Shown here: in pieces, positions 35,420 through 59,114 of the stretch
How positions within the stretch are numbered: the first letter of the stretch is position 1
How the letters are laid out: each line of letters opens with the position of its first letter
Assembly (NCBI GenBank): GCA_043825875.1
Contig: JBDRRF010000079.1
Coordinates: 224,353 to 288,352 of the forward strand
Reading direction: 5' to 3'
From: Pseudomonadota bacterium
Lineage (GTDB): Bacteria; Desulfobacterota; Desulfobacteria; Desulfobacterales; RPRI01
Length of the DNA stretch: 64,000 nucleotides
Notes under the pieces: generated by a model
Databases searched by the model: none
What the model saw: the letters and a program-made list of their open reading frames with translations, nothing else
Told to the model about the DNA's origin: nothing
Translations under genes and position numbers: made by a program

Positions 35420-35427
35420 ACAAAATA

Positions 35428-35509
35428 ATCTCGTTAGGGGAGCCATTAATGGCTGAGAATCGACTCTTAACTACCTGATCAGGGTAATGCCTGCGAAGGG
35501 AAACGAGTT
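35428..35509 (+). ncRNA. TPP riboswitch
   Basis: P1 CTCGTT/AACGAG; GGGGAGC..GCTGAGA..ACCTGATCAGGGTAATGCCTGCGAAGGGA consensus; upstream of thiC. Confidence 0.93.
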
Positions 35510-35587
35510 TTTGGTTTTTATACTTTAAAAATCCACCGTTTCTCATGGTCACATTTTTGTGTATCAACCCCTTTTGGTAGCCTAAGT

Positions 35588-38096: not shown

Positions 38097-38121
38097 TTCT
38101 ATAAATAAGCATATCACAAAT

Positions 38122-38285
38122 GAGCCAGTTTCAAAACGCCCCATTTTGGCCGATCTCTGCGTTGGGCTCAAATTTCGCACGAAGTGAAGCTTTAGCGCTA
38201 TCCTCGAAATACTTAATGTATTCCTGTGGTTGAAATTTTCTCCCGCCTTGAGCTTGACCAAACTGAAACGTTTTGAAAGTGGCTC
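38122..38285. mobile_element. MITE copy A with 4-bp target duplication AAAT
   Basis: TIR GAGCCAGTTTCAAAACG / CGTTTTGAAAGTGGCTC; AAAT on both sides; homologous to 45572-45713. Confidence 0.85.
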
Positions 38286-38361
38286 AAATGATACCAATTT
38301 ATTACAGGATATCATAATTGTCTATAATTAATTCGGCATAATTATCCGATTCCTTTAGCCC

Positions 38362-42976: not shown

Positions 42977-45184
42977 TTATATTGAGACCTGTGACCTTAG
43001 AATAGGTTCCTCATAGCAGCAATCAAGGTCGTTATCATCAGCTTTTGACTCCATCCCGGCAATAATTTTAGCTTCTTCATCTTCAGATGGCAGTACATAG
43101 ATTTTTCTCATTTTATATTCAGCTTGCTTCCCGTTGTTCCATTGCTTTACCGGTCGCAGATATCCTACAACCCTTGAATAGACTTCCGTTTGGGCATCAC
43201 AGGTCGGACATTGTTCCTGCTCCCCATTCAGATACCCGTGTGAAGGACACACGCTAAATGTTGGGGTAAGAGTAAAATAGGGAAGATGAAAATTGGTTGA
43301 TATTTTTCTGATAAGTCCTTTTATTATTGTAATATCTGATATGAGTTCTCCTAAAAACAGATGCAGTACTGTGCCACCGGTATATTTTGACTGAAGGCTA
43401 TCCTGTAATTGTAATGTTTCATATATATCGTCCGTATAATTAACAGGTAGTTGTGTTGAATTTGTATAAAACGGTGCTGCCCCGTTTTTATAATCCTCTT
43501 CATTGGCACATATAATATCGGGCATATCATGCTTGTCTTTCATGCACAAACGATAAGATGTACCTTCTGCCGGAGTAGCTTCAAGATTGTAAAGATCTCC
43601 TGTTTCTTCCTGTGATTCAGAAAGCATATTGCGTATAAAATCCATAACCCTTAAGGAAAATTCCAGACCTTTTTTACTTGCTATATCTACCCCTATAAAA
43701 TTAAGGCAAGCTTCGTTCATGCCGATTATTCCGATTGTAGAAAAGTGATTTTTCCAGTAAAGACCTGTTCCGTTTTTAACATCTCTTAGATAGAATTTTG
43801 AGTAAGGATAGAGATTCTTTTCAGTAAACTTTTCTAAGATCTTTCTTTTTATAGAAAGGCTTTGTGTTGCGACATTGATTTTTTCTTTAAGATGCCCGAA
43901 AAATTCATCTTCAGTTTCAGCAATATAGCCTATCCTCGGAAGATTTATTGTAACAACTCCTATAGAGCCGGTAAGCGGGCTTGCTCCGAACAGGCCGCCA
44001 CCTCTTTTTAATAGCTCTCTGTTGTCAAGGCGCAGCCTGCAGCACATAGATCTTGTGTCTTCAGGAGAAAGATCGGAATTAACAAAATTTGAAAAATAGG
44101 GTATCCCATATTTGCCGGTCATTTTCCAAACCGTATCAAGGTTTGGATTGTTCCAGTCAAAATCGGCGGTAATACTATAAGTTGGAATAGGAAATGTGAA
44201 TACCCTTCCCTTTGCATCCCCTTCCATCATTACTTCGGCAAAAGCTCTGTTTAGCATATCCATTTCAGGTTGAAAATCGGAATATGTTTCCTCGCGCTCT
44301 TTCCCTCCTACTATTACAGGATGATCTTTTAATATTGATGGAACAAAAAGATCCAATGTAATATTGGTAAAAGGCGTCTGAAAGCCAACTCGTGTAGGAA
44401 TATTTATGTTAAATACAAATTCCTGCATTGCCTGCTTTACTTCATTGTATTTAAGTCCGTCAAATCGTATAAAAGGAGCAAGAAGAGTATCGAAATTTGA
44501 AATAGCCTGGGCGCCGGCTGCTTCACCCTGAAGTGTATAGAAAAAATTGACAACTTGCCCAAGTGCGGATCGTAAGTGGTTGGGTGGAGCACTTTCCACT
44601 TTTCCCTCCACACCCCTGAATCCTTTTACAAGAATATCTTTTAAATCCCATCCTACACAGTAAACCGACAAAAGGCTTAGATCGTGTATATGTATGTCAC
44701 CTTTTTTATGAGCATCTCTTATTTCAGGAGGATAAATCTTGTTAAGCCAGTATTCTGAGGTTACATCAGATGATATGTAATTATTCAGTCCCTGCAAAGA
44801 ATAACACATATTGCTGTTTTCCTTGATTTTCCAATCAAGCTTTTGGATGTAATGCTCCACAAGATCAATATTGGCATCGGTTGCAATACTTCGTATCTGT
44901 GCATGCTGCTCCCTGTAAATAATATAGGCTTTTGCCGTTTTGTAGAACGTAGAATCCAGGAGCACACGTTCAACAATATCTTGTATTCCTTCAACATCCG
45001 GAATTGGCCCGAGGCGGATTTCATGGGCAAGTGTTAGAACCCTGAGTGTAAGTTTTCTTGCATCTCTTTCTTCAAATTCACCAGTTGCTTTTCCTGCTAT
45101 AACCAATGCAGCCGTAATTTTAGATGAATCAAAATCAACAATTCTGTTGTCACGTTTTCTGATTTTTTCAAACACTTGCACCAC
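42977..45184 (-). CDS. nrdD: Class III anaerobic ribonucleoside-triphosphate reductase with ATP cone
   Basis: ATP cone, SMCCRL, EATPAEG, Zn site C..H...C..C, glycyl radical loop YSRVVGYLRP. Confidence 0.95.
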   Translation of the reverse strand: MVQVFEKIRKRDNRIVDFDSSKITAALVIAGKATGEFEERDARKLTLRVLTLAHEIRLGPIPDVEGIQDIVERVLLDSTFYKTAKAYIIYREQHAQIRSIATDANIDLVEHYIQKLDWKIKENSNMCYSLQGLNNYISSDVTSEYWLNKIYPPEIRDAHKKGDIHIHDLSLLSVYCVGWDLKDILVKGFRGVEGKVESAPPNHLRSALGQVVNFFYTLQGEAAGAQAISNFDTLLAPFIRFDGLKYNEVKQAMQEFVFNINIPTRVGFQTPFTNITLDLFVPSILKDHPVIVGGKEREETYSDFQPEMDMLNRAFAEVMMEGDAKGRVFTFPIPTYSITADFDWNNPNLDTVWKMTGKYGIPYFSNFVNSDLSPEDTRSMCCRLRLDNRELLKRGGGLFGASPLTGSIGVVTINLPRIGYIAETEDEFFGHLKEKINVATQSLSIKRKILEKFTEKNLYPYSKFYLRDVKNGTGLYWKNHFSTIGIIGMNEACLNFIGVDIASKKGLEFSLRVMDFIRNMLSESQEETGDLYNLEATPAEGTSYRLCMKDKHDMPDIICANEEDYKNGAAPFYTNSTQLPVNYTDDIYETLQLQDSLQSKYTGGTVLHLFLGELISDITIIKGLIRKISTNFHLPYFTLTPTFSVCPSHGYLNGEQEQCPTCDAQTEVYSRVVGYLRPVKQWNNGKQAEYKMRKIYVLPSEDEEAKIIAGMESKADDNDLDCCYEEPILRSQVSI

Positions 45185-45446
45185 CTCTCTTAGTTTTGTC
45201 GATTTAAAGAAAATTGTTTCTGCCTATAAAAAAGAGACAAAAAATACCCGCCCGCTTCCAAGAAAAACAGAAAATACAAAATATATATAATAGTTAAGTG
45301 AATTAATAAAATACAAAGGATAAGATCAGTTTTTTAAATAGCTTTAAAAAAAACATTTCAATACAGCTTTATAGAAGTTATGATTTTTATGATAATAGGT
45401 ATAAGGGTTTATCTAATTAAAATTTAATTAGATGATATGTCTTAGT

Positions 45447-45493
45447 ACACAATATATAGTCGCTTGTCAACTATTTTATTCAATATATGGTAT
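45447..45493 (-). promoter_or_regulatory. Tandem NrdR boxes flanking the nrdD -35 element
   Basis: ACACAATATATAGTCG (45447) and ATTCAATATATGGTAT (45478), 31 nt apart; minus-strand TTGACA-17-TACTAA overlaps them. Confidence 0.8.
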
Positions 45494-45571
45494 TATTATA
45501 ATTAAAACGTAACTATTTCAAAGAACAGTAAAAAAAGATTTGAAGGTTGATTTTTTCAAAAAAAAGCCAAT

Positions 45572-45713
45572 GAGCCACTTTCAAAACGTTTCAGTTTGGT
45601 CAAGGTCAAGGCGGGTGAAAATTTTAACCGCAGGAATACATTAAGTATTTCGAGGATTATAATTTTCACCCAACGCAGAGATCGGCCAAAATGGGACGTT
45701 TTGAAACTGGCTC
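45572..45713. mobile_element. MITE copy B (inverted relative to A) with 4-bp target duplication CAAT
   Basis: TIR GAGCCACTTTCAAAACG / CGTTTTGAAACTGGCTC; CAAT on both sides. Confidence 0.85.
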
Positions 45714-45859
45714 CAATAAAAGCCGATTGTAAATTATTGCAATCCCATAAATTGTTACTATACTCAGATTGACAATGTGTCACAGTTCTGACAATTATAT
45801 AGTAATTTTAGCTGCTTTTTTATTGTGTTAATAATACAAACGTAACGGGATTTAAACAT

Positions 45860-47044
45860 ATGGAAAATACAACTTGTAAAGGATTTACAGCTTCCGGAGT
45901 AATCTCCGGTCTTAAAAAAAACGGGCGCAAAGATCTTGGCCTGATATATTCCGAAGTTCCTGCAAATGTTGCCGGAGTATTTACCAGAAATAAAGTCCAG
46001 GCTGCCCCGGTGGTTCTTGACAGGCAGAGAATCAAAGCAGGACTTTGCCAGGCAATTATTGCAAACAGCGGAAGCGCAAATTGCTGCACAGGAGACAAAG
46101 GCATGGAGGATGCCCTGTCCGAAGCCAAACTTGCGGCATCCGGTCTTAATATAGCCGAAGAAATGGTGCTTGTAGCCTCAACCGGTGTTATAGGAAAGCC
46201 ACTTGAGCTTGATAAAATAAAAAGTGCTGTTCCAAATCTTGTAAAATCACTCTCCGCTGACGGCATAAATGATTTTGCCCAGGCAATAATGACCACAGAC
46301 ACTGTTCCAAAGATAGCATCAGTAAAAGGTGAAGTCGGAGGGTGTAATTTTTATATAACCGGTGTTGCAAAAGGTGCCGGGATGATCTGCCCTGATATGG
46401 CCACAATGCTCTGCTTTATTATTACTGATATCAAAGCAGAATCAGATTATCTTAAAGAAGCACTTATATCTTCTACCAACAAATCTTTTAACAGGATAAC
46501 TATTGACGGCGACACAAGTACAAACGATACGGTTCTTATCATGGCAAACGGAATGTCAGGTATAAATACAGATAGCCTTTCCGAAAAAGAATATTTTCAA
46601 AAACTGCTTGATGAAGTTATGATCAAGCTTGCCAAAATGGTTGTAAAAGATGGTGAAGGTGCAACAAAACTGGTAGATATCACAGTTAACGGAGCTGCAA
46701 GCGAGAGTGATGCCAGAAAAATTGCAGGCGTTATAGCAAATTCAAACCTTGTTAAAACGGCTTTATTCGGAGAAGATGCAAACTGGGGAAGAATTCTGGC
46801 TGCAGCCGGAAGAGCCGGAGCAGAAATTAAACCTGAATCTGTGGATATTTATTTTGATAATGTGCTTATGGTAAAAAACGGCTGCGGCTGCGGAATTGAT
46901 GCTGAAGCAAAAGCAACAAAGGTTTTAAAAAAGTCTGAATTTACCATAATGCTTGATTTGAAATCGGGAAACGCAAATGCTTCGATTTTAACATGTGATT
47001 TTTCGATTGATTATGTCAAGATAAATGCCGATTACAGGTCGTGA
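45860..47044 (+). CDS. argJ: Bifunctional ornithine acetyltransferase/N-acetylglutamate synthase
   Basis: STGVIG, IMTTDT, KGAGMICPDMATML, DGDTSTND, DGEGATK, INADYRS. Confidence 0.97.
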   Translation: MENTTCKGFTASGVISGLKKNGRKDLGLIYSEVPANVAGVFTRNKVQAAPVVLDRQRIKAGLCQAIIANSGSANCCTGDKGMEDALSEAKLAASGLNIAEEMVLVASTGVIGKPLELDKIKSAVPNLVKSLSADGINDFAQAIMTTDTVPKIASVKGEVGGCNFYITGVAKGAGMICPDMATMLCFIITDIKAESDYLKEALISSTNKSFNRITIDGDTSTNDTVLIMANGMSGINTDSLSEKEYFQKLLDEVMIKLAKMVVKDGEGATKLVDITVNGAASESDARKIAGVIANSNLVKTALFGEDANWGRILAAAGRAGAEIKPESVDIYFDNVLMVKNGCGCGIDAEAKATKVLKKSEFTIMLDLKSGNANASILTCDFSIDYVKINADYRS

Positions 47045-47123
47045 TTTTTGCCGTTCAACTCTGGAGCTGATAGAAAAACTCACGCCTTCAGACGAATACT
47101 TCAATTCAATATTATTTATACAA

Positions 47124-47260
47124 AAGGGTTCAAGGATTCGAGGGTTCGAGTGAAATGGAAAATAAATTAAAGAATCAATTGATTGAAGAAAGTTTATTGC
47201 AGAAGTATGCAGGAGGCAATAAACACTTGACCCCTTGGTCCCTTGAATCCTTGAACCCTG
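47124..47260 (+). mobile_element. 8-nt-repeat-armed element, copy 3
   Basis: AAGGGTTC AAGGATTC GAGGGTTC GAGTGAAATG ... CACTT GACCCCTT GGTCCCTT GAATCCTT GAACCCTG. Confidence 0.7.
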
Positions 47261-47294
47261 ACAATCAGCTTTATCCGATGGCTTTGACTTTAAA

Positions 47295-47996
47295 ATGAGA
47301 CTTCAAAAATACTTATCTGCCGCAGGATTCTGTTCGAGAAGAAAGGGTGAACAGCTTATTCTATCCGGGCTTGTGAAAGTTAACGGCGTTGCAATAACTG
47401 CACTTGGAACAAAAATAGATCCTGAAAATGATGTGGTTGAAGTCGATGGAAACAAGATAGAATCAAAAGATGATTTAATTTATATAGCTCTTAATAAACC
47501 AAAAGGATATGTTACAACATGCAGAAGGGAAAGTAATAAAATTGTTTTAGATCTTGTTGATATTCCCCAGCGCATTTATCCTGTAGGCCGTCTGGATAAA
47601 GATTCAAGCGGACTTCTTCTTTTAACCAATGACGGCAGTTTGCATAATATTCTTTCACACCCATCTTTTGATCACGAGAAAGAGTATGAAGTTACCGTCA
47701 AATGGCCGATTACCGACAAGGCCCTTGATAAAATGAAAGAAGGGCTTTTTCTTATGGGAAGCAAAACAAGACCTGCCGAAATAATAAGAATTTCTCCTGA
47801 GCATTTTAATATCACACTTAAAGAAGGCCGTAACAGGCAAATACGCCGCATGGTCGTAAAAGTAGGAAACAAGGTTTTGAAGTTAAAAAGGATAAGAATC
47901 TCAGATATAAAACTGGGCAATCTTAAGGAAGGCGCATGGAGATATCTGAAGGAAAAAGAAAAAAAAACTTTGTTTAAAAATTATGCCTTAGAATAA
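47295..47996 (+). CDS. RsuA/RluB-family pseudouridine synthase
   Basis: S4 domain, NKPKG, GRLDKDSSGLLLLTND, EGRNRQIRRM. Confidence 0.95.
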   Translation: MRLQKYLSAAGFCSRRKGEQLILSGLVKVNGVAITALGTKIDPENDVVEVDGNKIESKDDLIYIALNKPKGYVTTCRRESNKIVLDLVDIPQRIYPVGRLDKDSSGLLLLTNDGSLHNILSHPSFDHEKEYEVTVKWPITDKALDKMKEGLFLMGSKTRPAEIIRISPEHFNITLKEGRNRQIRRMVVKVGNKVLKLKRIRISDIKLGNLKEGAWRYLKEKEKKTLFKNYALE

Positions 47997-48373
47997 TCCA
48001 TAGCTTTAAGACTTCTGACTATGAGTTTACCCAACAGATTTGTTTCCGGTTTTTATCTATTGGCATTAATGCCTATACCCTTATCTACTATAAATTCCAT
48101 TACATGAAAAATATCGGGTATTTACATTATATTTACTGCAATACTGGCTGTTTAGCCTTATATATTAGAGAATCTTTGCTGTATAATCGGACAATTAGAT
48201 TAGTTGACAAAATCAAAAACAAATGGTATTTCTATTTCGTAAGTATAGTATATTGCCAACAAGATAGTTTGCAAGGTTTATATAACAGAATTGAATATTT
48301 AAAGTACAACTTTGGCGCCTTACATTCTATTTAATACTATAGTTCTTTACCTTATAAATACTTATGAATCTAA

Positions 48374-49336
48374 TTGCAGGTAAATACAATGAATGTTAAA
48401 AGAGCCATAGCCCCGCAAATAGAAAAAAACGGATTGATTTTAATCGCATTTGCAATGGTAGCAATTTACTGGGTTATTGATTCTCTGGCATCCGGCCTTT
48501 TATTCCCACGCACTCTTATCGTAACTTTTGTCATTATATATGGGATTTTTACCCAGACTTTGATCAATTCCCGCAAAGCAGCTCTTGACGACAAAGAAAA
48601 AACACAACAGCAGTTGATACAGTCCGAAAGCCTTGCTGCAATCGGGCAACTTGTGGCAGGAATTGCACATGAATTAAACAATCCCCTCTCCAGTACTGCA
48701 AGCTTTATCCAAAGCGATATCGAATTGATTAATGAACAGGAAGATAAAAGAGAGATTGATCATGAAATACTGGCTGATCTTGAATTTTCATTAAAGGAAT
48801 TAAACAGGGCCGAAACAATAGTTAAAAGCGTTTTGGGCCTGTCCCGCCAGACGCAGACATATGCCGAAAATGTGAATCTTAATAAAATACTCGAAGATAC
48901 CTTAAGAATACTTCACAATCAGTATAGTTCTTCCGATATAACAATTGTAAAAGATTTTGATAATAATTTGCAGGACATTAACGGTAATTTTGCAAATCTT
49001 GGGCAGGTGTTTATCAATATAATACAAAATGCTCTACAGGCATTGCCGGACAACAAAGGATTTATATATTTAACTACAAGATATAATAACAATACAAATT
49101 GTATTGAAATAGAGTGCCGTGATACGGGAGAAGGAATCCCAAGCGAAGATATCAAAGATATATTCAAGCCATTTTATACAACAAAAGAAGTTGGGAAAGG
49201 ATCAGGCTTAGGATTATATATATCTCATGAAATTATAAAAAAACATGGGGGCCTTATCACTGTTAGCAGCAATAAAGATAAGGGCACAACCTTTTTAGTA
49301 GCGCTTCCGGCCAGAGGAGAAAAAGAAGATGAATAA
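48374..49336 (+). CDS. Membrane histidine kinase (NtrB-like) with minimal two-TM sensor
   Basis: GIAHELNNPL, N box, DTGEGI, FYTTK, GSGLGL. Confidence 0.93.
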   Translation: MQVNTMNVKRAIAPQIEKNGLILIAFAMVAIYWVIDSLASGLLFPRTLIVTFVIIYGIFTQTLINSRKAALDDKEKTQQQLIQSESLAAIGQLVAGIAHELNNPLSSTASFIQSDIELINEQEDKREIDHEILADLEFSLKELNRAETIVKSVLGLSRQTQTYAENVNLNKILEDTLRILHNQYSSSDITIVKDFDNNLQDINGNFANLGQVFINIIQNALQALPDNKGFIYLTTRYNNNTNCIEIECRDTGEGIPSEDIKDIFKPFYTTKEVGKGSGLGLYISHEIIKKHGGLITVSSNKDKGTTFLVALPARGEKEDE

Positions 49337-50324
49337 CATTTTGGTCGTTGATGATGAAGAAGGCATAAGGATCGCTTTGAAAAAAGTCCTGAAAAAAGAT
49401 GGTTATGAAGTTTTTTTAGCTGAAAGCGGGACCGAAGCTATAGATATTGTAAAAAAGCACATCAATGAAATAGAAACAGTAATCTCTGATTTTAAAATGC
49501 CCGGGCTAGACGGTCTGGAAACTCTCCAGCAAATCGGCAGAATTAACCCGGAAATTATAAAAATTATTTTAACCGGATATGCAACTCTTGAACGAGCCAT
49601 TGAAAGTGTCAATTCAGATATAGACGGATTTCTGACAAAACCTTTTGACAATAATATAATCAAACTTAAAATCAAGGAATTCCATGTAAAAAAAAGATTA
49701 AAACAATTTGTTCCATTCCAGATCCTTGAAGAGCTTCAGAAGTACGGTAACGGCTTAACTCCAAAAAATCAGAAAGTATCCATTCTTTTTACCGATATTC
49801 GTGATTTTTCCGGAATATCTAAGAGAATAAGTACTCTTGAGTTAGCTGAACTCTTAAACCTGCATTATTTTTATCCTCTTGATAATATCATTTTCGAATT
49901 CAACGGCACACTTGATAAACATATAGGAGACAGCATTATGGGAATATTCGGAGCGCCGATAGTTCGCGAAGATGACCCTTTCAGAGCTGTTTCCTGTGCA
50001 ATTAAGATGCGGGAAAAAGTCGCTGAAATAAATCGTGAAATTAAAAATAAAAATTTAAGAATACCTGTTGGGTATGGAATCAGTACCGGAGAAACTATGG
50101 TAGGAATATTTGGATCAGCCATCAGGAAAGAATATACCGCACTTGGTCAAGCAGTAAATTTTGCTGCGCATCTTGAACAGATTGCCAAAGAAGATCAAAT
50201 TCTTATCTGCCATGAAACATATAAGGCTGTTAAAGATTTTTTTAAGTTTGAATTGATTGATGGATTAATTATAAAAGGCATGGAAGGTGAAGGATCTATA
50301 TATAATGTTCTCGGAGCGCTTTAA
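49329..50324 (+). CDS. Response regulator receiver fused to class III adenylate cyclase
   Basis: VVDDE, SDFKMP, KPF; cyclase FTDIRDFS, DKHIGD, EYTALGQAVN. Confidence 0.92.
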   Translation: MNNILVVDDEEGIRIALKKVLKKDGYEVFLAESGTEAIDIVKKHINEIETVISDFKMPGLDGLETLQQIGRINPEIIKIILTGYATLERAIESVNSDIDGFLTKPFDNNIIKLKIKEFHVKKRLKQFVPFQILEELQKYGNGLTPKNQKVSILFTDIRDFSGISKRISTLELAELLNLHYFYPLDNIIFEFNGTLDKHIGDSIMGIFGAPIVREDDPFRAVSCAIKMREKVAEINREIKNKNLRIPVGYGISTGETMVGIFGSAIRKEYTALGQAVNFAAHLEQIAKEDQILICHETYKAVKDFFKFELIDGLIIKGMEGEGSIYNVLGAL

Positions 50325-50377
50325 ATAACGAAATACTCTTCAGTTAAAGGTACCCATACGATAACATGACCGGATAC

Positions 50378-50428
50378 AAAAAAGCCCCATTCTTCAAATG
50401 GTTGAAGCACGGGGCTTTTGTTTTTTTT
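50378..50428 (+). terminator. Intrinsic terminator
   Basis: AAAAGCCCC...GGGGCTTTT stem followed by a T-run. Confidence 0.75.
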
Positions 50429-50498
50429 AAATATCACAAACTATCAAATTTTCATAGTACCCATGAGAGGCTAAAGGTATATTTTCCATGGAGAGGCA

Positions 50499-51131
50499 AT
50501 GACAGAAATATTGAGTGATTTTCAGGCGGCTTTATTGTCGGTAGATATTATTAAGGCCAGACGGCTACTGGCTGAAGCAATGACCAATACGACTGCAGAT
50601 CAGCTTTTCGAAACGGTAATTGTAAGCGCGCTTGAAAATATTGGAAAGGGCTGGGAAGCAGGGCATTATGCGCTCGCGCAGGTTTATATGAGCGGAAGGA
50701 TTTGTGAAGAACTGGTTGATACTCTGCTGCCAAAAGAAGACAGGAAGAAAAATATTGCAACCAAAATGGCAATAACCACGCTCAACGACTATCATGCCCT
50801 CGGCAAGCGTATTGTTTATTCAGCGCTTCGTGCAGGCGGGTTTGATCTGCGGGACTATGGAAGGCTCGGCGTTGAAGGTCTTGTTAAAAAGATAATGGAT
50901 GACGGCCTTGATGTTATCCTTATTTCCGTATTAATGTTTCCCTCGGCGCTGCATGTAAAGGATATCAGAGAACAGCTCGATAAAAATGGATACACGGTGA
51001 AGATAGTGGTCGGCGGCGCTCCGTTCAGGCTTGACCCTCACCTTTGGCACCAGGTTGGGGCCGACGCTGTCGGATATACTGCATCTGACGCAATAAAGAT
51101 CGTTCAATCTATATATGGAGAAATCGCATGA
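50499..51131 (+). CDS. Corrinoid (B12-binding) protein, MtaC/MttC-like
   Basis: Cap domain LENIGKGWE; DYHALG (DxHxxG), ISVLM, VGGAP, GADA. Confidence 0.9.
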   Translation: MTEILSDFQAALLSVDIIKARRLLAEAMTNTTADQLFETVIVSALENIGKGWEAGHYALAQVYMSGRICEELVDTLLPKEDRKKNIATKMAITTLNDYHALGKRIVYSALRAGGFDLRDYGRLGVEGLVKKIMDDGLDVILISVLMFPSALHVKDIREQLDKNGYTVKIVVGGAPFRLDPHLWHQVGADAVGYTASDAIKIVQSIYGEIA

Positions 51132-52186
51132 TGGCTACCCCCTCGATGACCTCATTGCAGCGGGTTCTTACCACTTTGGGGCACAAGGAACCTGATCGTG
51201 TCCCTTTTTTCCTCCTGCTGACCATGCACGGGGCAAGGGAACTTGGCGTGTCGATTCAAGAGTATTTCTCAAACGCCGAATCTGTTGCCTTGGGACAGCT
51301 TCTGATGAGGAAGAAATACCGGCATGATTGTCTCTACAGCTTTTTTTATGCCGCAGTGGAATTCGAGGCCTGGGGTGGAAATGTTATTTATGTAGATGAT
51401 GGCCCTCCGAATGCAGGCGCACCTTTTATAAGGAAACCCGATGACATTACACGATTGACACTGCCTCGCGTTAAAGACATCCCCTGCCTGATAAAGGTGC
51501 TCAAGGCCACCCAAATGATAAAAGAAGATATCGGTGAGGAGGCCCCGATCATCGGGGTTGTAATGTCTCCTTTTTCCCTGCCTGTAATGCAAATGGGGTT
51601 TTCCTCCTATATCGATCTGATCTATGAACAACCCCAACTGTTCGAGCAGCTAATGAAAATCAACCAGGAATTCTGCGTCGAATGGGCAAATGCACAACTT
51701 GGGGCAGGTGCGACGGCCATTTGTTATTTCGATCCGGTGTCCTCCCCAACCATTGTTCCCCGGGAGCTTTACCTGAAAACCGGATTTGCCATCGCAAAGA
51801 GCACACTCTCGCGCATCAAAGGACCGACAGCCACCCATATGGCTTCAGGCCGATGCCTGCCTATTGCCGAAGACCTTGCCCTCACCGGGACGGCTGCCAT
51901 AGGAGTCAGCGAACTGGAGGACCTGGAAGACATCAAAAACAAATACAGGGGAAAGCTGGCCGTTATAGGAAATCTAAATGGCATAGAAATGGCGCGCTGG
52001 GATACAGGACAGGCAGTGTCAGCTGTAAAGCAAGCCATTACAAAGGCAGGCCCAGGAGGGGGTTTTATCCTGTCGGACAATCATGGCGAGATACCGTGGC
52101 AAGTACATGAAGATGTGCTGATGGCCCTGTCAGAGGCTGTTGAAACCTATGGCCGCTATCCGATTGTCCCAGGAGAAATGGCATGA
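51128..52186 (+). CDS. URO-D superfamily methylcobamide methyltransferase (MT2/MtaA-like)
   Basis: EPDRVP, EAWG, FDP, GNL, GGFILS; ATGA overlaps with both neighbours. Confidence 0.88.
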   Translation: MMATPSMTSLQRVLTTLGHKEPDRVPFFLLLTMHGARELGVSIQEYFSNAESVALGQLLMRKKYRHDCLYSFFYAAVEFEAWGGNVIYVDDGPPNAGAPFIRKPDDITRLTLPRVKDIPCLIKVLKATQMIKEDIGEEAPIIGVVMSPFSLPVMQMGFSSYIDLIYEQPQLFEQLMKINQEFCVEWANAQLGAGATAICYFDPVSSPTIVPRELYLKTGFAIAKSTLSRIKGPTATHMASGRCLPIAEDLALTGTAAIGVSELEDLEDIKNKYRGKLAVIGNLNGIEMARWDTGQAVSAVKQAITKAGPGGGFILSDNHGEIPWQVHEDVLMALSEAVETYGRYPIVPGEMA

Positions 52187-53706
52187 GCGGCAAGCATGCT
52201 ATTCTGTGTTGCAGCATTTTTCGGCAGGAGATCGAGAAACTTAAGGTGTCCGAGAAATACCCTCATGTTCAAATTGCATTTTTTCCCGGAACATGCGGAA
52301 GACCGCCGGTAGAACTGGACAAGATGAAAAACATTCTGTTGGGGTCGATGGACTATGCTGCGTTAGATGTTCTTGGAAGCCTCTGCGTCACCGAGCCTGA
52401 ACTTCCGGACTATAAATTAAAACCATTTCACATCCATGGCATGCGCAATTGTTTTCACATGATTGCCAATCCGGACCTGGTGGATAAGTATGTCAGCGAA
52501 GGCCGGCACCTGGTAACTCCGGGGTGGTTGTCATCATGGAGGCAGTTTGTCAATGCATGGGGATTTGACCGGCCTACGGCACAAAGCTACTTTGCCGAGT
52601 CAGCCAAGGAAATCCTGATGCTCGATACGGGGGTGGATGATGCGGCATACCTCAACCTTCAGGAATTTTCGGATTTTATCAATAGACCGTTTGAAGCCCT
52701 AACGGTAGGACTTGGCTTTATTGACCTTTTTGTTGCCAATGTCGTCATGCAAAGACAGGTTGAACTATCGTGTAACGAACATCTGAGCCTGCTTGATGAG
52801 AAACAGAAAGAGCTGTCTTATTATGCCATGGCATTTGACCTTTTAAGGACAATCACCAAAGTCAAAAATGAAGATGAGGTGGTCAGTCAGATTACCGATA
52901 TGTTCAATATGCTTTTTGCGCCCCGCACTATTACATATAAAAAAGAGGAGCCAGATATTTCTCCTGCCACAGATGCGGTCATCCGCAGCGAAAAGGGCTT
53001 TGTTTTGCCGATTTCTGCAAACGGAAGATTGATGGGCAGGTTTGAACTGGATGGCCTGCAATTTCCGGAATACATGGACAGATACCTGATCCTATCTTCA
53101 GGCTTGATGGATGTCTGTGGGATGGCCTTAGAGAACGCCAGATACTACCAGGAGATCAAAGACCTTTCTGAAATAGACGGACTAACCGGCATAGCAAACC
53201 GCCGCAGGTTCGATCAGTGTATTGAGCAGGAATGGAAGCGCATGGAGCGGGAACGGCAACCTCTGTCAGTTATTATGTGTGATGTGGATGATTTCAAGCT
53301 GTATAACGACACTTACGGCCATCAAGCGGGTGATGATTGTTTGCGTAAGGTGGCTACAGATCTTTCCTCCAATTGCAAGCGGCCCGGTGATTTGGTTGCG
53401 CGCTACGGAGGTGAAGAGTTCGTGCTTTTGCTGCCGGATACGCCGGAAGAGGGGGCTTTCCAACTGGCAGAAAACATTCGGCACTCGATCGAAAAGCTGG
53501 GCATCCCCCATGCCAATTCGCAGGTCAGCCCATGGATTACGTTAAGCCTGGGTGTGGCCTGCTGTATGCATACTTCCCATTTATCTGCGCAATCGCTGCT
53601 TCTGTCAGCGGACCAGGCGCTTTATGCGGCCAAGTCAACCGGGAGAAACCGCACTGTGGTGAAACAACTTAAAGAAGACGGACCACAGTCCTTTCCACTT
53701 TTATAG
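52183..53706 (+). CDS. DUF1638-like domain plus GAF-like linker plus GGDEF diguanylate cyclase
   Basis: N-terminal CCSIF, C, GSLC, NCFHM, TPGWL, LDTG; DGLTG, ND.YGH..GD, RPGD I-site, GGEEF. Confidence 0.9.
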   Translation: MSGKHAILCCSIFRQEIEKLKVSEKYPHVQIAFFPGTCGRPPVELDKMKNILLGSMDYAALDVLGSLCVTEPELPDYKLKPFHIHGMRNCFHMIANPDLVDKYVSEGRHLVTPGWLSSWRQFVNAWGFDRPTAQSYFAESAKEILMLDTGVDDAAYLNLQEFSDFINRPFEALTVGLGFIDLFVANVVMQRQVELSCNEHLSLLDEKQKELSYYAMAFDLLRTITKVKNEDEVVSQITDMFNMLFAPRTITYKKEEPDISPATDAVIRSEKGFVLPISANGRLMGRFELDGLQFPEYMDRYLILSSGLMDVCGMALENARYYQEIKDLSEIDGLTGIANRRRFDQCIEQEWKRMERERQPLSVIMCDVDDFKLYNDTYGHQAGDDCLRKVATDLSSNCKRPGDLVARYGGEEFVLLLPDTPEEGAFQLAENIRHSIEKLGIPHANSQVSPWITLSLGVACCMHTSHLSAQSLLLSADQALYAAKSTGRNRTVVKQLKEDGPQSFPLL

Positions 53707-53893
53707 AAAAGCGTAGAAAAGACTGTAGGGAAAAGAAGACAAGCTACACTTTCGAGATCTTGGTCAGTCAAATGAGCCCAACTTTCCAACCAGTCCGTCA
53801 ACCCGTTAAACGGGTTACATCCGCGTTGGCCAGATGCAATATGTAATGAATTAGCTTTTTATTCAATTATTTTAAAGACAGGAGGGCAATACA

Positions 53894-56800
53894 ATGTACA
53901 AGCAAATACTAGTCTTCTTTATTGGGATTCTGCTTTTAACTTGTCCTACCCCTGCATTCGCACAGGAAGTTCTTTACACCGAAGATTTTAAAGCTGGAGT
54001 GGTCGAAGGTTGGGAATTAGAGCCAGGCTGGAGAGTGGAACAAAAGGAAGGTAATTTTATCCTAAACGGAGAAGGGCATAATTGGGCAAGGCTGCAAAGA
54101 GGTCAGGACTGGGCCGATTATGCCTTCCGATCTCGCCTTAAGGTTATCAGAGGAGGAATTCATCTAAATTATCGCGTTAGCGAGAAGGGAAGATATTTCA
54201 TTGGTTTCAGTGAGGAGGGACTCTATCTGAACAAGGAAACGCCATGGGGGAAATTCTTTGAACTATCCAGAAGCGATGCGCGCATTGGCATTAACACTTG
54301 GCATGACATCGAGATCCGGGGCAAGGGTGGGCATCTTCAAGTCTATTTAGATGGTAAGCTGGAAATAGACTTTACTGACAATGCTCCTATCACACAGGGC
54401 AGTATCGCTTTTGAAACTCTCGAAGAATCTTATGCCCAGGTAGATAATGTTGAAAGCGCTAGTATTTCTACCGTCATTTCCGAAACAGATGGTGCAATTA
54501 ATTTGGATTTGATAAACATAGGAGAGCTGTGGATAGAAGGTTTGAAGCTTGCTGTTGGTGAGCAGGCCCAAGAGTTATTTTCATCTGCCGAGGATGTTTA
54601 TCATAAAGCTATTTTACAGATAGAAAAAGGGGCAGTAGATGAAGCTGAACACCTTGTAAAGGAGGCTGAAGCTATCTATCGCGAGGCAATCATAATAGGG
54701 TTGCGGCAGGGACTGTTAGAGATAACGGAAAAGAACTTAAAGGAGGGCAATACAAATATTACTCTTGATAATCTTGAAAAATCAAGACAGTTACATATAC
54801 AAGCAAGTGATAGAAATATAAGCACAAAAGAGTTTTTGAAGTTGCTTAAAAAAATACAATGGGAACTTGCCAGTATGACATATCCGGATTTAAAAGTCGA
54901 ATTATGGACTGTACCTGAAAGTCAGAAGAAATTAAGCCATAAAAAATGGATTTCTCCTTATCCTCCTACACCGGATCAACCTGCAATCATTTCTATAATT
55001 GTTAAGAATATCGGCTTAGAGCCTGTTGATAAAAAATTTAACATTGAACTTTATGTAGATAAAAAACTAGAAAAGACCTGGACATGGTCACCTATCTTAG
55101 AAATGGAGGATGACTATCATAAAAAGAACCTGATGATGCCCGGCGAAACACAGGTATATGAATTTGCCAAAAAGTTTTCAGCGGGAAAACATACCTTCCA
55201 TTGGAAAGTAGACACGAAAAACAATATTTCTGAAAGCGATGAAAGTAAAAAAAGCAATGAGTTGGAAGCGACAGCAATTTGGGTTGCCCCATCTGATCTC
55301 CCGGATTTGATCGTCAAAGATATCACTCATGCTGATGAGCTGATTGTTGGGCAAGACACTAAATGGAAAATCACAATTATGAACAACGGGAAAACGGATG
55401 TTGATTCTCCTTTCTTAACTACTTTGGATACAGGTGGCGTACAGTTTGGATCATTTTGGCTAAACTCTCTTGCCGCAGGCGCTTTGAAAACCTTTGAGAC
55501 AAAACAGTCCTCCAGCGTAGCCGGTACAGAGTCTATAACAGGCACCGTTGATGTTGGCGGTGTTATACCCGAAACAAATGAGGCTAATAACAAGAAAGTA
55601 ATCCCGTTTACTACATCATACGTGGACTTAGAAGTGGGTAATGTTATTGTGAAAACAAATAAATCCGCTATCCATGAGCCTGTAACGATTTCGTTTCAAA
55701 TAAAAAACAATGGTCCCGGAAATATTACCAAACCTTTTAAAATAGGTGTCTTTCCAGGCAAAGTGTTGCAAGGCAAGACTCAGGCAACTTCATTTACATT
55801 CCCTAAGAATAAGCTACCATTGAAGGCTGGAGCATCAATCGATCTCGAACAAAAAGTTCTTTTGTCCTATCCCGGAAATTACCAAGCTTGGGTTATGGCA
55901 GATTTCCCTGACCCGGATTTCGTTTATAATGAAAAAGATAAGGGCAATAATACAAAAACCAGCAAGGGCTTTTCTTTAAAGGAAACTTATTATGTTAAAA
56001 TTGATAAGATTGAATATACTTCCTCATGTAAAAACGGATTTAAGGTATGGCTGGACCGTTCAGGTGGATATTGGAAAGGAGATGTAGTATTAAAGCTTTT
56101 CTATAACGGTAAGTTGAAAAGTGAAAAAGACTTACCTCCAGGTGAAAGCAAAGCATACTTTAAGGAAAATACTTTTGATGTAGGTTTTGCCGATAATAAA
56201 GAGCTGAAAATATACAACGGTACCTTAGAGACACATGCAAAGGTGGGTGGCCAACTTATACAATCAAGCTCACCTGCAAAAGTAATTGATGTATGGGATT
56301 GGCCCCAACCCAAAATCAATTCTATTTCTCCTGATTATGCATTGCGGGGGCAAAAGAATAATATAACCATTAATGGGAAGGATCTTACAACGCCAAAGGG
56401 TTTGACCAATGTTACTATTGCGCATATGCAACCAGGAGCTTTATATCCGGACAAAGAAGTGACAGAAAAAGTATTGAAAACATCCTCCTCAGTTGTAGTA
56501 ACTGAATTAGATGTTTCTAATAGTGCGCAACTCGGCAAGAGAGGCCTTTGGTTAGATGCTTGTTCATATGCAGATTGTAGAGATTGCTTTGAGATAGTAT
56601 CACAGCCACCTTCTCCAACAAAACCATCAGAGCCTAAAAAGCCGCCGGTATGCAATAAACCCGATCTTTTTTTTCTTGGTTCTGTTTGGCTTGAACCAAC
56701 CAACAACCCGTCTCCGGGTCAAAAATTTACATTCTATTCCACCTTGATAAACATAGGTAATGCATTAGCGCCAGCCTCTAAAGCAAAGGTTATATTAACC

Positions 56801-57013
56801 GGTGGAGGAAAAGAATTGAAATCAAAAATCATAACCATTCCCACGCTAAAGGCTAAACAGCCGTATAAAGTTAGCTGGGCCTTTAATAACGGTCTCCCAA
56901 AAGGTAAATATACTTTTGGTTATTATAATATTACAATAACTCTTGATTATAATAAAGCTATTCAAGAATGTAATGAAAACAATTGGACTGACATCTCCTT
57001 CGGTGTTTATTAA
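53894..57013 (+). CDS. Large secreted protein: DUF1080-like beta-sandwich, several CARDB repeats, IPT/TIG domain
   Basis: Signal peptide PAFA/Q; W.DY.F, NTWHDIEI..KG; repeated PDL...N.G...E..E.NN CARDB signatures; PKINSISP. Confidence 0.8.
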   Translation: MYKQILVFFIGILLLTCPTPAFAQEVLYTEDFKAGVVEGWELEPGWRVEQKEGNFILNGEGHNWARLQRGQDWADYAFRSRLKVIRGGIHLNYRVSEKGRYFIGFSEEGLYLNKETPWGKFFELSRSDARIGINTWHDIEIRGKGGHLQVYLDGKLEIDFTDNAPITQGSIAFETLEESYAQVDNVESASISTVISETDGAINLDLINIGELWIEGLKLAVGEQAQELFSSAEDVYHKAILQIEKGAVDEAEHLVKEAEAIYREAIIIGLRQGLLEITEKNLKEGNTNITLDNLEKSRQLHIQASDRNISTKEFLKLLKKIQWELASMTYPDLKVELWTVPESQKKLSHKKWISPYPPTPDQPAIISIIVKNIGLEPVDKKFNIELYVDKKLEKTWTWSPILEMEDDYHKKNLMMPGETQVYEFAKKFSAGKHTFHWKVDTKNNISESDESKKSNELEATAIWVAPSDLPDLIVKDITHADELIVGQDTKWKITIMNNGKTDVDSPFLTTLDTGGVQFGSFWLNSLAAGALKTFETKQSSSVAGTESITGTVDVGGVIPETNEANNKKVIPFTTSYVDLEVGNVIVKTNKSAIHEPVTISFQIKNNGPGNITKPFKIGVFPGKVLQGKTQATSFTFPKNKLPLKAGASIDLEQKVLLSYPGNYQAWVMADFPDPDFVYNEKDKGNNTKTSKGFSLKETYYVKIDKIEYTSSCKNGFKVWLDRSGGYWKGDVVLKLFYNGKLKSEKDLPPGESKAYFKENTFDVGFADNKELKIYNGTLETHAKVGGQLIQSSSPAKVIDVWDWPQPKINSISPDYALRGQKNNITINGKDLTTPKGLTNVTIAHMQPGALYPDKEVTEKVLKTSSSVVVTELDVSNSAQLGKRGLWLDACSYADCRDCFEIVSQPPSPTKPSEPKKPPVCNKPDLFFLGSVWLEPTNNPSPGQKFTFYSTLINIGNALAPASKAKVILTGGGKELKSKIITIPTLKAKQPYKVSWAFNNGLPKGKYTFGYYNITITLDYNKAIQECNENNWTDISFGVY

Positions 57014-57080
57014 CTAAACCTTAATTTGGAGATATACTGGTCAGTACAATAACTTGTTGGGGCATCAGGAGGTCAATAAG

Positions 57081-57305
57081 ATGGGAGGAGCAGCTGCAAT
57101 TATTAAAGGAAAAGTTGCAAATCGGCTATTGCAAACAAGGCCGGTGAAGCGTGGTCTGATTGGTCGGCTTCTAAAGAAAGACAAGTTTGTAAAACCAAAA
57201 GAGATAGAATTAGGTGATGGTCGATTTATGACGGAAGTCCCGTCCGATGACTTCGCCCATCTTGCGAATGAATTTGTGGAAAAATGGGGTCAGGTCTACA
57301 TTTGA
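57081..57305 (+). CDS. Small hypothetical protein (74 aa), possibly truncated
   Basis: AGGAGG RBS then ATG at 57081; the stop lies within a GGGGTCAG motif. Confidence 0.5.
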   Translation: MGGAAAIIKGKVANRLLQTRPVKRGLIGRLLKKDKFVKPKEIELGDGRFMTEVPSDDFAHLANEFVEKWGQVYI

Positions 57306-57323
57306 CCTTTAAGGAATTATTGT

Positions 57324-59114
57324 ATGAGCGATAAATCAGGCAAAACACCCGTTGTGCTGGTGGGACCCGTGGGAGATCACTACGGCATGCCCTCCATTGC
57401 CGTTAGCCTTTTGAAAGCCTCCCTGGAAACCCGTGGTATTGGCTGCCGGGCGATATACGCCAATCTTGTGTTTTATGATATTTTCGGTAACGATTTTTTC
57501 AATAACAACAGTCTGACCGGAATCAGCCTTCTATTCCTTGAACGCCTTTTTGCACCCATGGCCCACGGCGATCTCATGCCATATGATTTAACTTCCCTGA
57601 CGGGACATGGCATTAGCGATTCCCCTGAAATATTTTACGATGTTCTGATGGGAGAACGCACGCCGGTATCCCGGGCGCTGGCACGGGAAGCGAATCGGAT
57701 GGCAACGTTGTTTCTTCAAAGAATGACGGAAAAAATTGTTGCACAGAGCCCTATAATCGTAGGATTCTCCTCGACGTTCCATACCACCAATTCCATTCTC
57801 GCCATGGTCCGATATGTCAAAATGCACCTCCCCGATGCTCTTTGTGTAGTGGGCGGCAATAATTGCGAAGGCGAAATGGGCATTGAATTGGGAAAGCTCT
57901 CCAAGGATATAGATTATATTTTCCAGGGAGAGGCGGATTTCGCCTTTGCCAGTTTTTGCCGCGATTACCTCGATAAAGAAAAACTTCCTCAGGATAAAAT
58001 CATAGCCTGCCCTCCTATATTGGACCTGAACACCCTTCCATCGCCCGATTACCAGGATTTTTTCCATCAATGGACTCTCCCCCACGAGCACATATTTCTC
58101 ACATTCGAAAGCTCCAGAGGTTGCTGGTGGGGCCACAAGCACCAATGCAAATTTTGTGGGGAAAGCGCCCTTGACCTGCCCTACCGGGTGCGCGCCCCCG
58201 AACGGGTCATCTCTGAGTTGGAAAAGTTTCAGGAATACTACCCTGGTGTGAAAACTTACATGGCCTCCGATTCAATTTTCCCCTACAGCTATTTTAAAAC
58301 TTTTTTGCCCCAATTGATCGAGAGCCGGTTCACGGGAAAATTGATCTACGAAACCAAGGCTAACCTGCGCCGGTCCCAGGTTGAGCTGCTTTGCCGGGCA
58401 GGCGTGATTCGCATCATGCCCGGCATCGAATCGCTCTCCACCCGTCTTTTAAAATTACTCAATAAGGGAAGCACAACCATTATCAATATTCGCCTGTTGA
58501 GGCATTGCAGAGAATTGGATATGGATGTGGCCTGGCTCTTGTTGATGGGGATTCCCGGAGACAAACTCGAAGATTATGAGGCCCAGGTATCCCTCATCCC
58601 CTTCCTTCAACACCTCTCGCCCCCGGGCATCGAACCGGTGCGGATTCCAAGAAACAGCCCGTATTTCAAAGAGGGGCATAAATACGATGTCTGCAACCTT
58701 ACTGCGCTTCGGGCATACCGGCACGCCTTTCCCGCCAAAACGGATTTTTTTTCCATAGCTTATTTTTTTACTGCGGATTTTCCGTCCGAAGCGCGTGAAT
58801 GCCCCGAAAAAATGCGAACTTTTGTGGAATGTATTCGAAAATGGCAGACGCGGTGGACCCATGAAAAATTCCCGGAGCTGATCCTCCGCCAGTTGCCGAA
58901 TAAAGAGTGGGAATTGACCGATACAAGGGACTGTGCGTTGACACCCCGGCATATCATCAGCCAGGGCGAACAAGATCTATTGAGACGATGTGTCTGGGGA
59001 TTACCCGTGGAAAAAGCAAGACTCGATCCTGCATATAAAATATGTATCAAAGCTGGCTACATTGTCGAAGTCGATCAAAAAGCCCTGTCCGTCGTGTGCC
59101 GTACATCAGGATAA
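57324..59114 (+). CDS. B12-binding radical SAM protein of the RiPP maturation rSAM_ocin_1 type
   Basis: MPSIAVSLLKA, VGFSSTF, GGNNCEGEMG, ESSRGCWWG.KH.C.FCG, YETKANL, PGIESLS. Confidence 0.88.
   Translation: MSDKSGKTPVVLVGPVGDHYGMPSIAVSLLKASLETRGIGCRAIYANLVFYDIFGNDFFNNNSLTGISLLFLERLFAPMAHGDLMPYDLTSLTGHGISDSPEIFYDVLMGERTPVSRALAREANRMATLFLQRMTEKIVAQSPIIVGFSSTFHTTNSILAMVRYVKMHLPDALCVVGGNNCEGEMGIELGKLSKDIDYIFQGEADFAFASFCRDYLDKEKLPQDKIIACPPILDLNTLPSPDYQDFFHQWTLPHEHIFLTFESSRGCWWGHKHQCKFCGESALDLPYRVRAPERVISELEKFQEYYPGVKTYMASDSIFPYSYFKTFLPQLIESRFTGKLIYETKANLRRSQVELLCRAGVIRIMPGIESLSTRLLKLLNKGSTTIINIRLLRHCRELDMDVAWLLLMGIPGDKLEDYEAQVSLIPFLQHLSPPGIEPVRIPRNSPYFKEGHKYDVCNLTALRAYRHAFPAKTDFFSIAYFFTADFPSEARECPEKMRTFVECIRKWQTRWTHEKFPELILRQLPNKEWELTDTRDCALTPRHIISQGEQDLLRRCVWGLPVEKARLDPAYKICIKAGYIVEVDQKALSVVCRTSG

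Follow-up and report, generated by a model that had tools for sequence, protein, structure and literature searches.

A mobile three-gene cassette encoding a corrinoid protein, an MtaA/CmuA-like protein and a DUF1638-GAF-GGDEF protein as a candidate corrinoid-state sensor

We analyzed a stretch of 64,000 nucleotides (hereafter, the window) from a Pseudomonadota bacterium that GTDB places in the Desulfobacterales (RPRI01), which covers positions 224,353 to 288,352 of the forward strand of contig JBDRRF010000079.1 in assembly GCA_043825875.1. An earlier note on this DNA had proposed that three adjacent genes of the window, encoding a corrinoid (B12-binding) protein, an altered second methyltransferase (MT2) and a DUF1638-GGDEF protein, represent a methyl-transfer module that was rewired as a sensory input for the synthesis of cyclic di-GMP (c-di-GMP). 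The three genes and the features that accompany them are listed in Table 1. The ATGA overlaps ascribed to the triad were read directly at both junctions, and GGAG is found 8 nt upstream of each. The hairpin upstream of gene 1 (-19.8 kcal/mol, z = -3.54 versus shuffles) ends the preceding operon, and the triad therefore appears to be a separate transcription unit with its own start. A promoter and terminator consensus scan of positions 50200-54000 returned fewer sites than shuffled sequences did, none of them useful, and did not list this hairpin; neither a cobalamin riboswitch nor any other Rfam family was found near the triad in a scan of the window at Rfam gathering scores. Convincing membrane segments are missing from all three proteins: the sole hydrophobic stretch of the gene 3 product (residues 170-188, Kyte-Doolittle mean 1.72) is modeled as a core strand plus helix.

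Table 1. Features of the three-gene cassette and its immediate surroundings (positions in the window; aa, amino acid residues).
Feature	Position	Strand	Remark
Intrinsic terminator of upstream kinase/REC-cyclase operon	50380..50428	+	hairpin, then T-run
Block shared with congener	50487..53673	.	blastn, 96.9% over 3187 nt
Shine-Dalgarno-like GGAGAGG before gene 1	50490..50496	+	direct sequence reading
Gene 1, corrinoid protein	50499..51131	+	210 aa
Gene 2, URO-D-fold protein	51128..52186	+	352 aa
Gene 3, DUF1638-GAF-GGDEF protein	52183..53706	+	507 aa
DUF1638 input domain, aa 1-178	52183..52716	+	PF07796; two-lobed alpha/beta fold (model), C10, C38, C68, C90
Long connecting helix, aa 178-222	52714..52848	+	AlphaFold2 model
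GAF-fold domain, aa ~205-320	52795..53142	+	fold match of model
GGDEF diguanylate cyclase domain, aa 330-490	53170..53652	+	PF00990
I-site RPGD	53380-53391	+	R400-P-G-D403
GGEEF active site	53407-53421	+	G409-G-E-E-F413

The product of gene 1 is built of a four-helix cap and a Rossmann B12-binding domain, as judged from its Pfam matches, both above the cut-offs (PF02607, B12-binding_2, E 1.4e-10; PF02310, B12-binding, E 2.1e-16). Its DxHxxG motif, which the earlier note had described as kept, is D97-Y-H99-A-L-G102, and D97, H99, G102, S143, L145, G172 and G173 (DxHxxG...SxL...GG) were invariant across 32 carrier orthologues from related cassettes; the median identity of carriers to the window copy was 49% (35 others). 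On fold and motifs, gene 1 is predicted to encode a His-on cobamide carrier of the kind represented by methyltransferase corrinoid proteins. Its score against TIGR02370 was 73.6 bits, under the cut-off of 215.3, and its scores against the NCBIfam models for MtbC, MtgC and MtaC were all far under their cut-offs.

B12-binding domains are also proven photoreceptor modules, one of which, in the photocobilin AbDPcob, is fused to a diguanylate cyclase (PMC11796333). The triad may thus be imagined as a light sensor, in which the methyl- or adenosyl-cobamide of the carrier would be photolyzed, the DUF1638-GAF part would detect the change and the URO-D protein would re-methylate the cobalt to reset the system; one host of the related cassettes described below is indeed a phototrophic Chloroflexota strain (L030). 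The light-response signature given for B12 domains in the same source comprises GxxW, EH, GxxH and GxxxP (PMC11796333). The carrier keeps GxxW (G49..W52), but EH is missing from the carrier family, where conserved V62 and Y63 stand at W+10/+11 instead, and N96 occupies the G position of GxxH in the window carrier. Moreover, the NCBIfam CarH model gave 29.3 bits versus a cut-off of 400, and most cassette hosts are anaerobes from sediment and groundwater, which are dark habitats. Of the three inputs considered in the earlier note (methyl donor, corrinoid redox state and light), the last loses support through the lack of a CarH-type EH signature, and we regard a light sensor as very unlikely.

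Gene 2 encodes a protein that matches the URO-D family over the whole profile (PF01208, 182.7 bits, profile positions 2-346 of 346). Its top NCBIfam models are of the MtaA/CmuA type, with 93-103 bits, and HemE reached only 47 bits. The scores were all below the family cut-offs, at 93.1 versus 235.4 for TIGR01463, 102.8 versus 244 for PRK06252 and 92.2 versus 400 for MtaA_Meth. In the alignment to the solved MtaA structure (4ay7), 'HIC-GN' lies opposite 'HMASGR'; because the MtaA 'HIC' aligns with H237-M-A239, the Cys of the HxC motif is replaced by Ala239 in gene 2. H237 was invariant and A239 kept in at least 90% of 32 URO-D orthologues, and D317, H319, G320 and P323 were also invariant among the orthologues. 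The description of gene 2 as an altered MT2 is borne out for this motif. We take the HxC residues of MtaA to be zinc ligands, presumably together with a second, C-terminal Cys. The pairwise alignment to 4ay7 ends at residue 285; the conserved C-terminal D317-N-H319-G320 has no Cys and resembles the 'HG' stretch of HemE in the alignment. The URO-D protein is the best-conserved member of the triad, with a median identity to the window copy of 62% and a range of 45-76% (31 others, a count that leaves out L006, L037, L039 and L040, in which the URO-D open reading frame (ORF) is split or partial). The 32 URO-D proteins of the cassettes formed a group of their own in a quick tree (SH-aLRT 88), apart from nine same-genome paralogues and from the URO-D protein of the split-form locus described below.

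Gene 3 combines an input domain, a long helix, a GAF-like domain and a GGDEF domain. The N-terminal Cys-rich DUF1638-like domain reported earlier was recovered above the cut-off (PF07796, 31.7 bits versus 27, residues 85-180), and the nearest ESM Atlas clusters were DUF1638 only (score 0.89), which serves as a lead only. Across 151 sensor heads (the window copy and its 150 best representative homologues), four Cys were near-invariant (C10 in 146/151, C38 in 145/151, C68 in 139/151 and C90 in 145/151), as were the motifs TPGW and LDTG; the median identity of the sensor head to the window copy was about 34% (31 others). Residues 1-320 were modeled with AlphaFold2 from 32 cassette orthologues; the model (mean pLDDT 85.2) consists of an alpha/beta domain, a 45-residue helix and the GAF-like domain, with the four Cys placed at or just past the strand ends of the alpha/beta core. 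At the sequence level, the GAF part is too divergent for Pfam (GAF_2, only E = 0.23). In the model, it matched the PDE6 GAF domain 3jab (VIA-align, Z 15.0, root-mean-square deviation 2.0 Å over 113 residues), dozens of other GAF chains with Z 10-15, and 5llw (Z 10.0, 2.7 Å, 110 residues). The modeled DUF1638-helix-GAF-GGDEF layout resembles phytochrome-type GAF-helix-cyclase coupling. DUF1638 modeled alone reached a pLDDT of 87.7 and a pTM of 0.85, and Foldseek found no solved relative of this model at E <= 0.001. Fold kinship suggested by VIA-align, i.e., to creatininase (Z 6.0), LacI/periplasmic-binding-type two-lobed proteins (about 5) and the CbiK chelatase (4.7), was rejected as too weak. 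At the other end of the protein, the GGDEF domain scored 179.2 bits with PF00990 and 175.9 bits with TIGR00254 (cut-off 37.4), and both the GGEEF motif and the RxxD I-site, which lies five residues ahead of it, are intact, in agreement with the earlier description. Gene 3 is thus predicted, from its domain and motifs, to encode a diguanylate cyclase.

A conserved four-Cys site raises the question of whether DUF1638 itself carries an iron-sulfur (Fe-S) or metal center that acts as the primary redox or oxygen sensor, with the corrinoid and URO-D proteins in accessory roles as electron sink, electron source or maturation factors. The near-invariance of the four Cys, their location in the model and the prevalence of sediment and groundwater anaerobes among the hosts are consistent with such a sensor. 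Stand-alone DUF1638 proteins, in addition, co-occur with the RamA-like activator, an Fe-S ATPase, across Alphaproteobacteria, according to Price et al. 2018 (PMC5764234). This explanation, however, does not account for the fact that all 35 loci retain a full cobamide-binding protein together with an enzyme of such high conservation. Three stand-alone DUF1638 proteins of related genomes share C10, E16, P113, W115, D148 and T149 with the sensor head, but have His or Leu at the position of C38, and one of them has Ser at that of C90; the Cys4 set is therefore not a general property of DUF1638. Taken as a whole, we consider a primary four-Cys sensor to be unlikely.

We scanned for the sensor head in one genome per species and obtained 35 confirmed loci, drawn from about ten phyla. 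In every one of them, a carrier gene and then a URO-D gene directly precede the sensor gene, and this identical order indicates that the triad is more than a chance arrangement; conservation across genomes, on which the earlier note had made its proposal depend, is thereby established. The hosts include Nitrospirota, Syntrophomonadaceae and other Bacillota, Desulfobacterales, Geobacter/Desulfuromonadales, Syntrophaceae, Chloroflexota, Bacteroidota, Spirochaetota, Leptospirales, Magnetococcales, Myxococcales, Thermoleophilia, Dongiaceae and Anoxymicrobiaceae. The third gene ends in a signaling or PAS module throughout: GGDEF in 18 loci, a histidine kinase in 15 and PAS only in two. The kinases are of the HisKA or HisKA_2 type, some with additional REC, Hpt or PAS domains, and one is split over two ORFs. 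At locus L039 (945-3571), the URO-D protein and the start of DUF1638 form one ORF, and the GAF-like part and a HisKA_2 kinase another, which reflects either a true fusion or frameshift errors of the metagenome bin.

A search of 1.84 billion representatives yielded 1202 relatives of the sensor head at E <= 0.001 and 451 at E <= 1e-30. Among the best 150 of the 1202, the output was of the kinase type in 106, GGDEF in 20, HD-GYP in two, STAS in one and REC in one; nine ended in a Cys4 tail of about 50 residues, and the remaining 11 were PAS/GAF-only or truncated. Swapped outputs were thus found as the earlier note had anticipated, in the form of GGDEF, histidine kinases, hybrid kinases, HD-GYP, STAS and the Cys4 tail, whereas the methyl-accepting chemotaxis protein that it had also named was not seen. 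The Cys4 tail is a C-terminal segment of the form LPICxxCKKIRDDxGYW...(S/T)HxxCPxC that stands where an enzymatic output would, and its carriers are P0020, P0052, P0074, P0078, P0118, P0120, P0131, P0133, P0159 and P0162.

The cassette of the window also occurs in a congeneric genome (G008, locus L047). The flanks of the shared block in G008 differ from those in the window and instead match positions C79:162678-171677 of G000, about 103 kb from the cassette in the window's genome, with an identity of 94-97%. Contigs of two other groundwater metagenome runs have identical break points; they are not independent of G008, because their flanks are of the G008 type. In two metatranscriptomes from the same study, no contig covered the region, an outcome that speaks neither for nor against its expression. 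The GC content is 0.45-0.48 in the cassette region (50001-54000) versus 0.35-0.39 upstream (44001-50000), and 0.40-0.45 from there to the end of the window. A block with its own GC content that is shared at about 97% identity beside different flanks behaves as one transferable unit, so the three genes have been moved or inserted as a block. Strong matches to the cassette were found in two of 16 congeneric and two of 24 same-order genomes. An element of about 150 nt adjoins the cassette in the congener (L047 8603-8762) and recurs on many contigs of the window's genome, in dozens of copies with 77-97% identity, of which two lie in the window (38118-38297 and 45572-45713). Also in the congener, a gene for a LigB-family aromatic ring-opening dioxygenase (L047 8766-9578, minus strand; PF02900, 115 bits) overlaps the cyclase gene (TAATG), a single hint that aromatic compounds may be linked to the signal; the flanks of the 35 other loci showed no LigB gene.

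To describe the surroundings of the triad, we scanned up to two ORFs on each side of the 35 loci, i.e., 118 proteins at E <= 1e-6, a set that leaves out two very long ORFs. None of the 118 matched the MtaB, MTTB, Pterin_bind, RACo, CdhD, B12-binding or URO-D families at this threshold; a weak second URO-D-like ORF is located upstream at L032. Another kinase, response regulator or c-di-GMP enzyme adjoins in 16 of the 35 loci. The homologues therefore do not sit beside substrate-specific methyltransferase (MT1) or catabolic methyl-transfer genes, an arrangement that the earlier note had named as evidence against its proposal. Its statement that MT1, RACE/RamA and Wood-Ljungdahl genes are missing near the triad also holds for the window: the matches in this genome (RACo 4, MTTB 2, Pterin_bind 4, CdhD 4) are all off this contig, as are 10 further URO-D and three further B12-cap matches. 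In 14 control genomes, DUF1638, RACo and MTTB were each matched in Methanosarcina acetivorans only.

These results bear on the possibility that the triad is mainly metabolic, namely, half of a corrinoid methyltransferase system in which an MT I of the O-demethylase, methylthiol or halomethane type works with the carrier and with DUF1638 as a maintenance factor, and the output reports flux. As the names of the NCBIfam models indicate, corrinoid proteins are classically paired with URO-D-family enzymes in metabolism; the genome possesses the 10 URO-D, three B12-cap and four RACo matches and Wood-Ljungdahl genes elsewhere, and the ring-cleavage dioxygenase gene of the congener overlaps the end of the cassette. 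However, none of the 118 flanking proteins was a second methyltransferase, a pterin or thiol-methyl acceptor enzyme or an activator; the neighbors are unrelated housekeeping or signaling genes, and the third gene always ends in a signaling or PAS module. A mainly metabolic role thus seems improbable to us.

DUF1638 also occurs in two other contexts in related genomes. A split form is present in a same-order genome (L046 4022-8339, minus strand), in which genes for a carrier of 221 aa and a divergent URO-D protein of 344 aa are followed by a stand-alone DUF1638 gene (200 aa, 89.9 bits) and then by an overlapping gene for a PAS-HisKA-HATPase-REC kinase. The GAF part of the window protein had no significant BLASTP match to this kinase (best E 0.063). 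At L045 (4703-9529, minus strand), two stand-alone DUF1638 genes are clustered with genes for a protein with DUF3786 and an Fe-S domain, DUF2284 (predicted metal-binding), a CMD-family protein, a GrdB-like protein and HAD hydrolases, and the cluster is adjoined by a sigma-54 activator and a BcrAD/BadFG-type activase; this is a different DUF1638 context.

The strict gene order, translational coupling, interchangeable outputs, lack of metabolic partners and movement as a block lead us to regard the triad as a sensory input module, and comparative genomics is the kind of evidence that supports the rewiring of a methyl-transfer module proposed in the earlier note. With a probability of roughly 60%, we propose that the triad is a self-contained, cytoplasmic and laterally mobile corrinoid-state sensor cassette. 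According to this proposal, gene 1 would supply a dedicated His-on cobamide carrier, and gene 2 an MtaA/CmuA-family enzyme devoted to setting the state of the carrier cobamide, most likely by methyl transfer between cobalt and some small molecule that is widely available. As a result, the carrier would alternate between methyl-Co(III) and Co(I)/Co(II). DUF1638, whose four-Cys site probably holds a metal or Fe-S center, would dock on the carrier and read the state of the cobalt, in a role that may parallel that of stand-alone DUF1638 proteins encoded beside corrinoid proteins in B12 reactivation. From there, the long helix and the GAF domain could relay the signal to the GGDEF dimer, by which c-di-GMP synthesis would be switched. 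As the stimulus of such a sensor, the availability of a methyl donor is a tentative candidate, the redox or oxidant state of the cobalt is a more doubtful one, and cobamide supply would be a surprising one.

Several points weigh against this interpretation. As judged from the alignment, gene 2 lacks an intact zinc-thiolate site, the hallmark of MT2 enzymes, and may therefore not transfer methyl groups in the manner of MtaA, or at all. A structural role alone, or another chemistry, would also be compatible with how strongly the URO-D protein is conserved. The cassette encodes neither a second methyltransferase nor a reductive activator, and a full methyl cycle would for that reason need other partners or the four RACo-like proteins of the genome. 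Three elements of the proposal are inferred: methyl transfer itself, the docking of DUF1638 onto the carrier and the kind of stimulus. Finally, the patchy spread of the cassette is compatible with an accessory sensor, yet says nothing on function.

A bolder explanation can be drawn by analogy with the phosphorelay. In this 'methyl relay', the URO-D protein, deprived of a zinc-thiolate site of its own, would pass the methyl group of the methyl-cobamide carrier to a metal-bound Cys cluster of DUF1638 or remove it from there. The switch would be this reversible methylation, or else the cobalt state of the three-protein complex, and in hundreds of anaerobes it would control outputs that include kinases and c-di-GMP enzymes. 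We give this explanation only a slim chance.

The literature searched, outside which subscription-only papers lie, contained no description of this cassette or of DUF1638 as a sensor, so that, within this literature, the absence of a characterized system with this architecture, as stated in the earlier note, is upheld. Among known systems, the triad is closest in composition to MtaC/MtaA of methylotrophic methanogens (and to MtbC/MtbA and MtsB/MtsA), in which the identical two families are encoded: in the cassette, the two genes are neighbors, DxHxxG, SxL and GG are retained in the carrier, and the best named matches of gene 2 are MtaA/CmuA models. Unlike MtaC/MtaA, the cassette has no MT1, has Ala in place of the HxC Cys and misses every curated family cut-off, and its carrier and URO-D genes are tied to a signaling protein rather than to catabolic genes. 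Coenzyme M, to our knowledge, is not expected in the bacterial host, in contrast to the methanogens. In bacterial O-demethylases and in chloromethane use, URO-D-family MT I enzymes and CmuA, respectively, transfer methyl groups from small molecules to a corrinoid protein. They share the URO-D fold with gene 2 and provide a precedent for the 'methyl donor in' direction, but these systems comprise an MT II and an activating enzyme and feed one-carbon metabolism, none of which is represented beside the cassette. The bacteriophytochrome-linked cyclase IsPadC (5llw) likewise has a GAF-fold domain and a long helix before GGDEF; gene 3 differs from it in having no PAS/PHY modules or bilin-binding context, and its input consists of DUF1638 together with two partner proteins.

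DUF1638 itself has been tied to B12 chemistry in a metabolic setting. Price et al. 2018 reported that the stand-alone DUF1638 gene PGA1_c13340 of Phaeobacter inhibens adjoins the B12-binding gene of a split methionine synthase and is genetically needed, with a methionine-rescued fitness defect like that of the split methionine synthase; a specific function for DUF1638 was not proposed (PMC5764234). A Ruegeria homologue was predicted to be part of cobalamin recharging (PMC12478193). As in Phaeobacter, DUF1638 of the cassette is encoded beside a B12-cap/B12-binding protein, to which it is functionally tied in that organism (PMC5764234). It differs from the Phaeobacter protein, which stands alone and serves an enzyme, in being fused to GAF and an output and in carrying the Cys4 set, and the cassette has no RamA, pterin or homocysteine module. 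In Geobacter sulfurreducens, GSU2386 ('corrinoid enzyme') and GSU2387 ('methyltransferase'), which may belong to such a cassette and would then favor the metabolic explanation, were suggested to possibly serve acetyl-CoA synthesis and were undetected in proteomes (PMC7894505). MtaR, considered as a related system, is an AraC-type regulator and was set aside as unrelated (PMC13602510). The cassette shares with CarH and AbDPcob the control of a regulatory output by a B12-binding module, in one case of a GGDEF cyclase (PMC11796333). In contrast to these photoreceptors, it has no EH motif, its B12 protein is a separate polypeptide, and a methyltransferase-like enzyme and DUF1638 are obligatory partners.

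B12-dependent regulation, for which AerR is another example, is known from riboswitches and from light-sensitive B12-binding domains. If the proposal holds, the combination of carrier, methyltransferase-like enzyme and DUF1638 would be a third, enzyme-coupled use of cobamide chemistry in signaling, and the input module, which over a thousand sequence clusters represent, would feed two-component systems and c-di-GMP enzymes. DUF1638, for which there has hitherto been a fitness phenotype only, would gain a testable molecular role. The proposal would also point to a signal (methyl donors, cobalt redox state or cobamide supply) that is apparently monitored by many sediment and groundwater anaerobes, and in the window, the output would tie this signal to biofilm and motility decisions through c-di-GMP.

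Other features of the window are listed here for completeness. The upstream operon (48374-50324, plus strand) encodes an overlapping pair of a HisKA/HATPase kinase and a REC-adenylate/guanylate cyclase, so that two second-messenger modules adjoin, with the terminator between them. Downstream of the triad (53894-59114, plus strand) are genes for two proteins, one of 1039 aa, in which four CARDB repeats accompany a 3-keto-disaccharide-hydrolase-like domain, and a radical SAM protein of 596 aa that matches B12-binding weakly (E 0.0085). Farther upstream, a thiamine pyrophosphate (TPP) riboswitch lies at 35426-35518 (plus strand; 66.8 bits versus a gathering score of 54.3).

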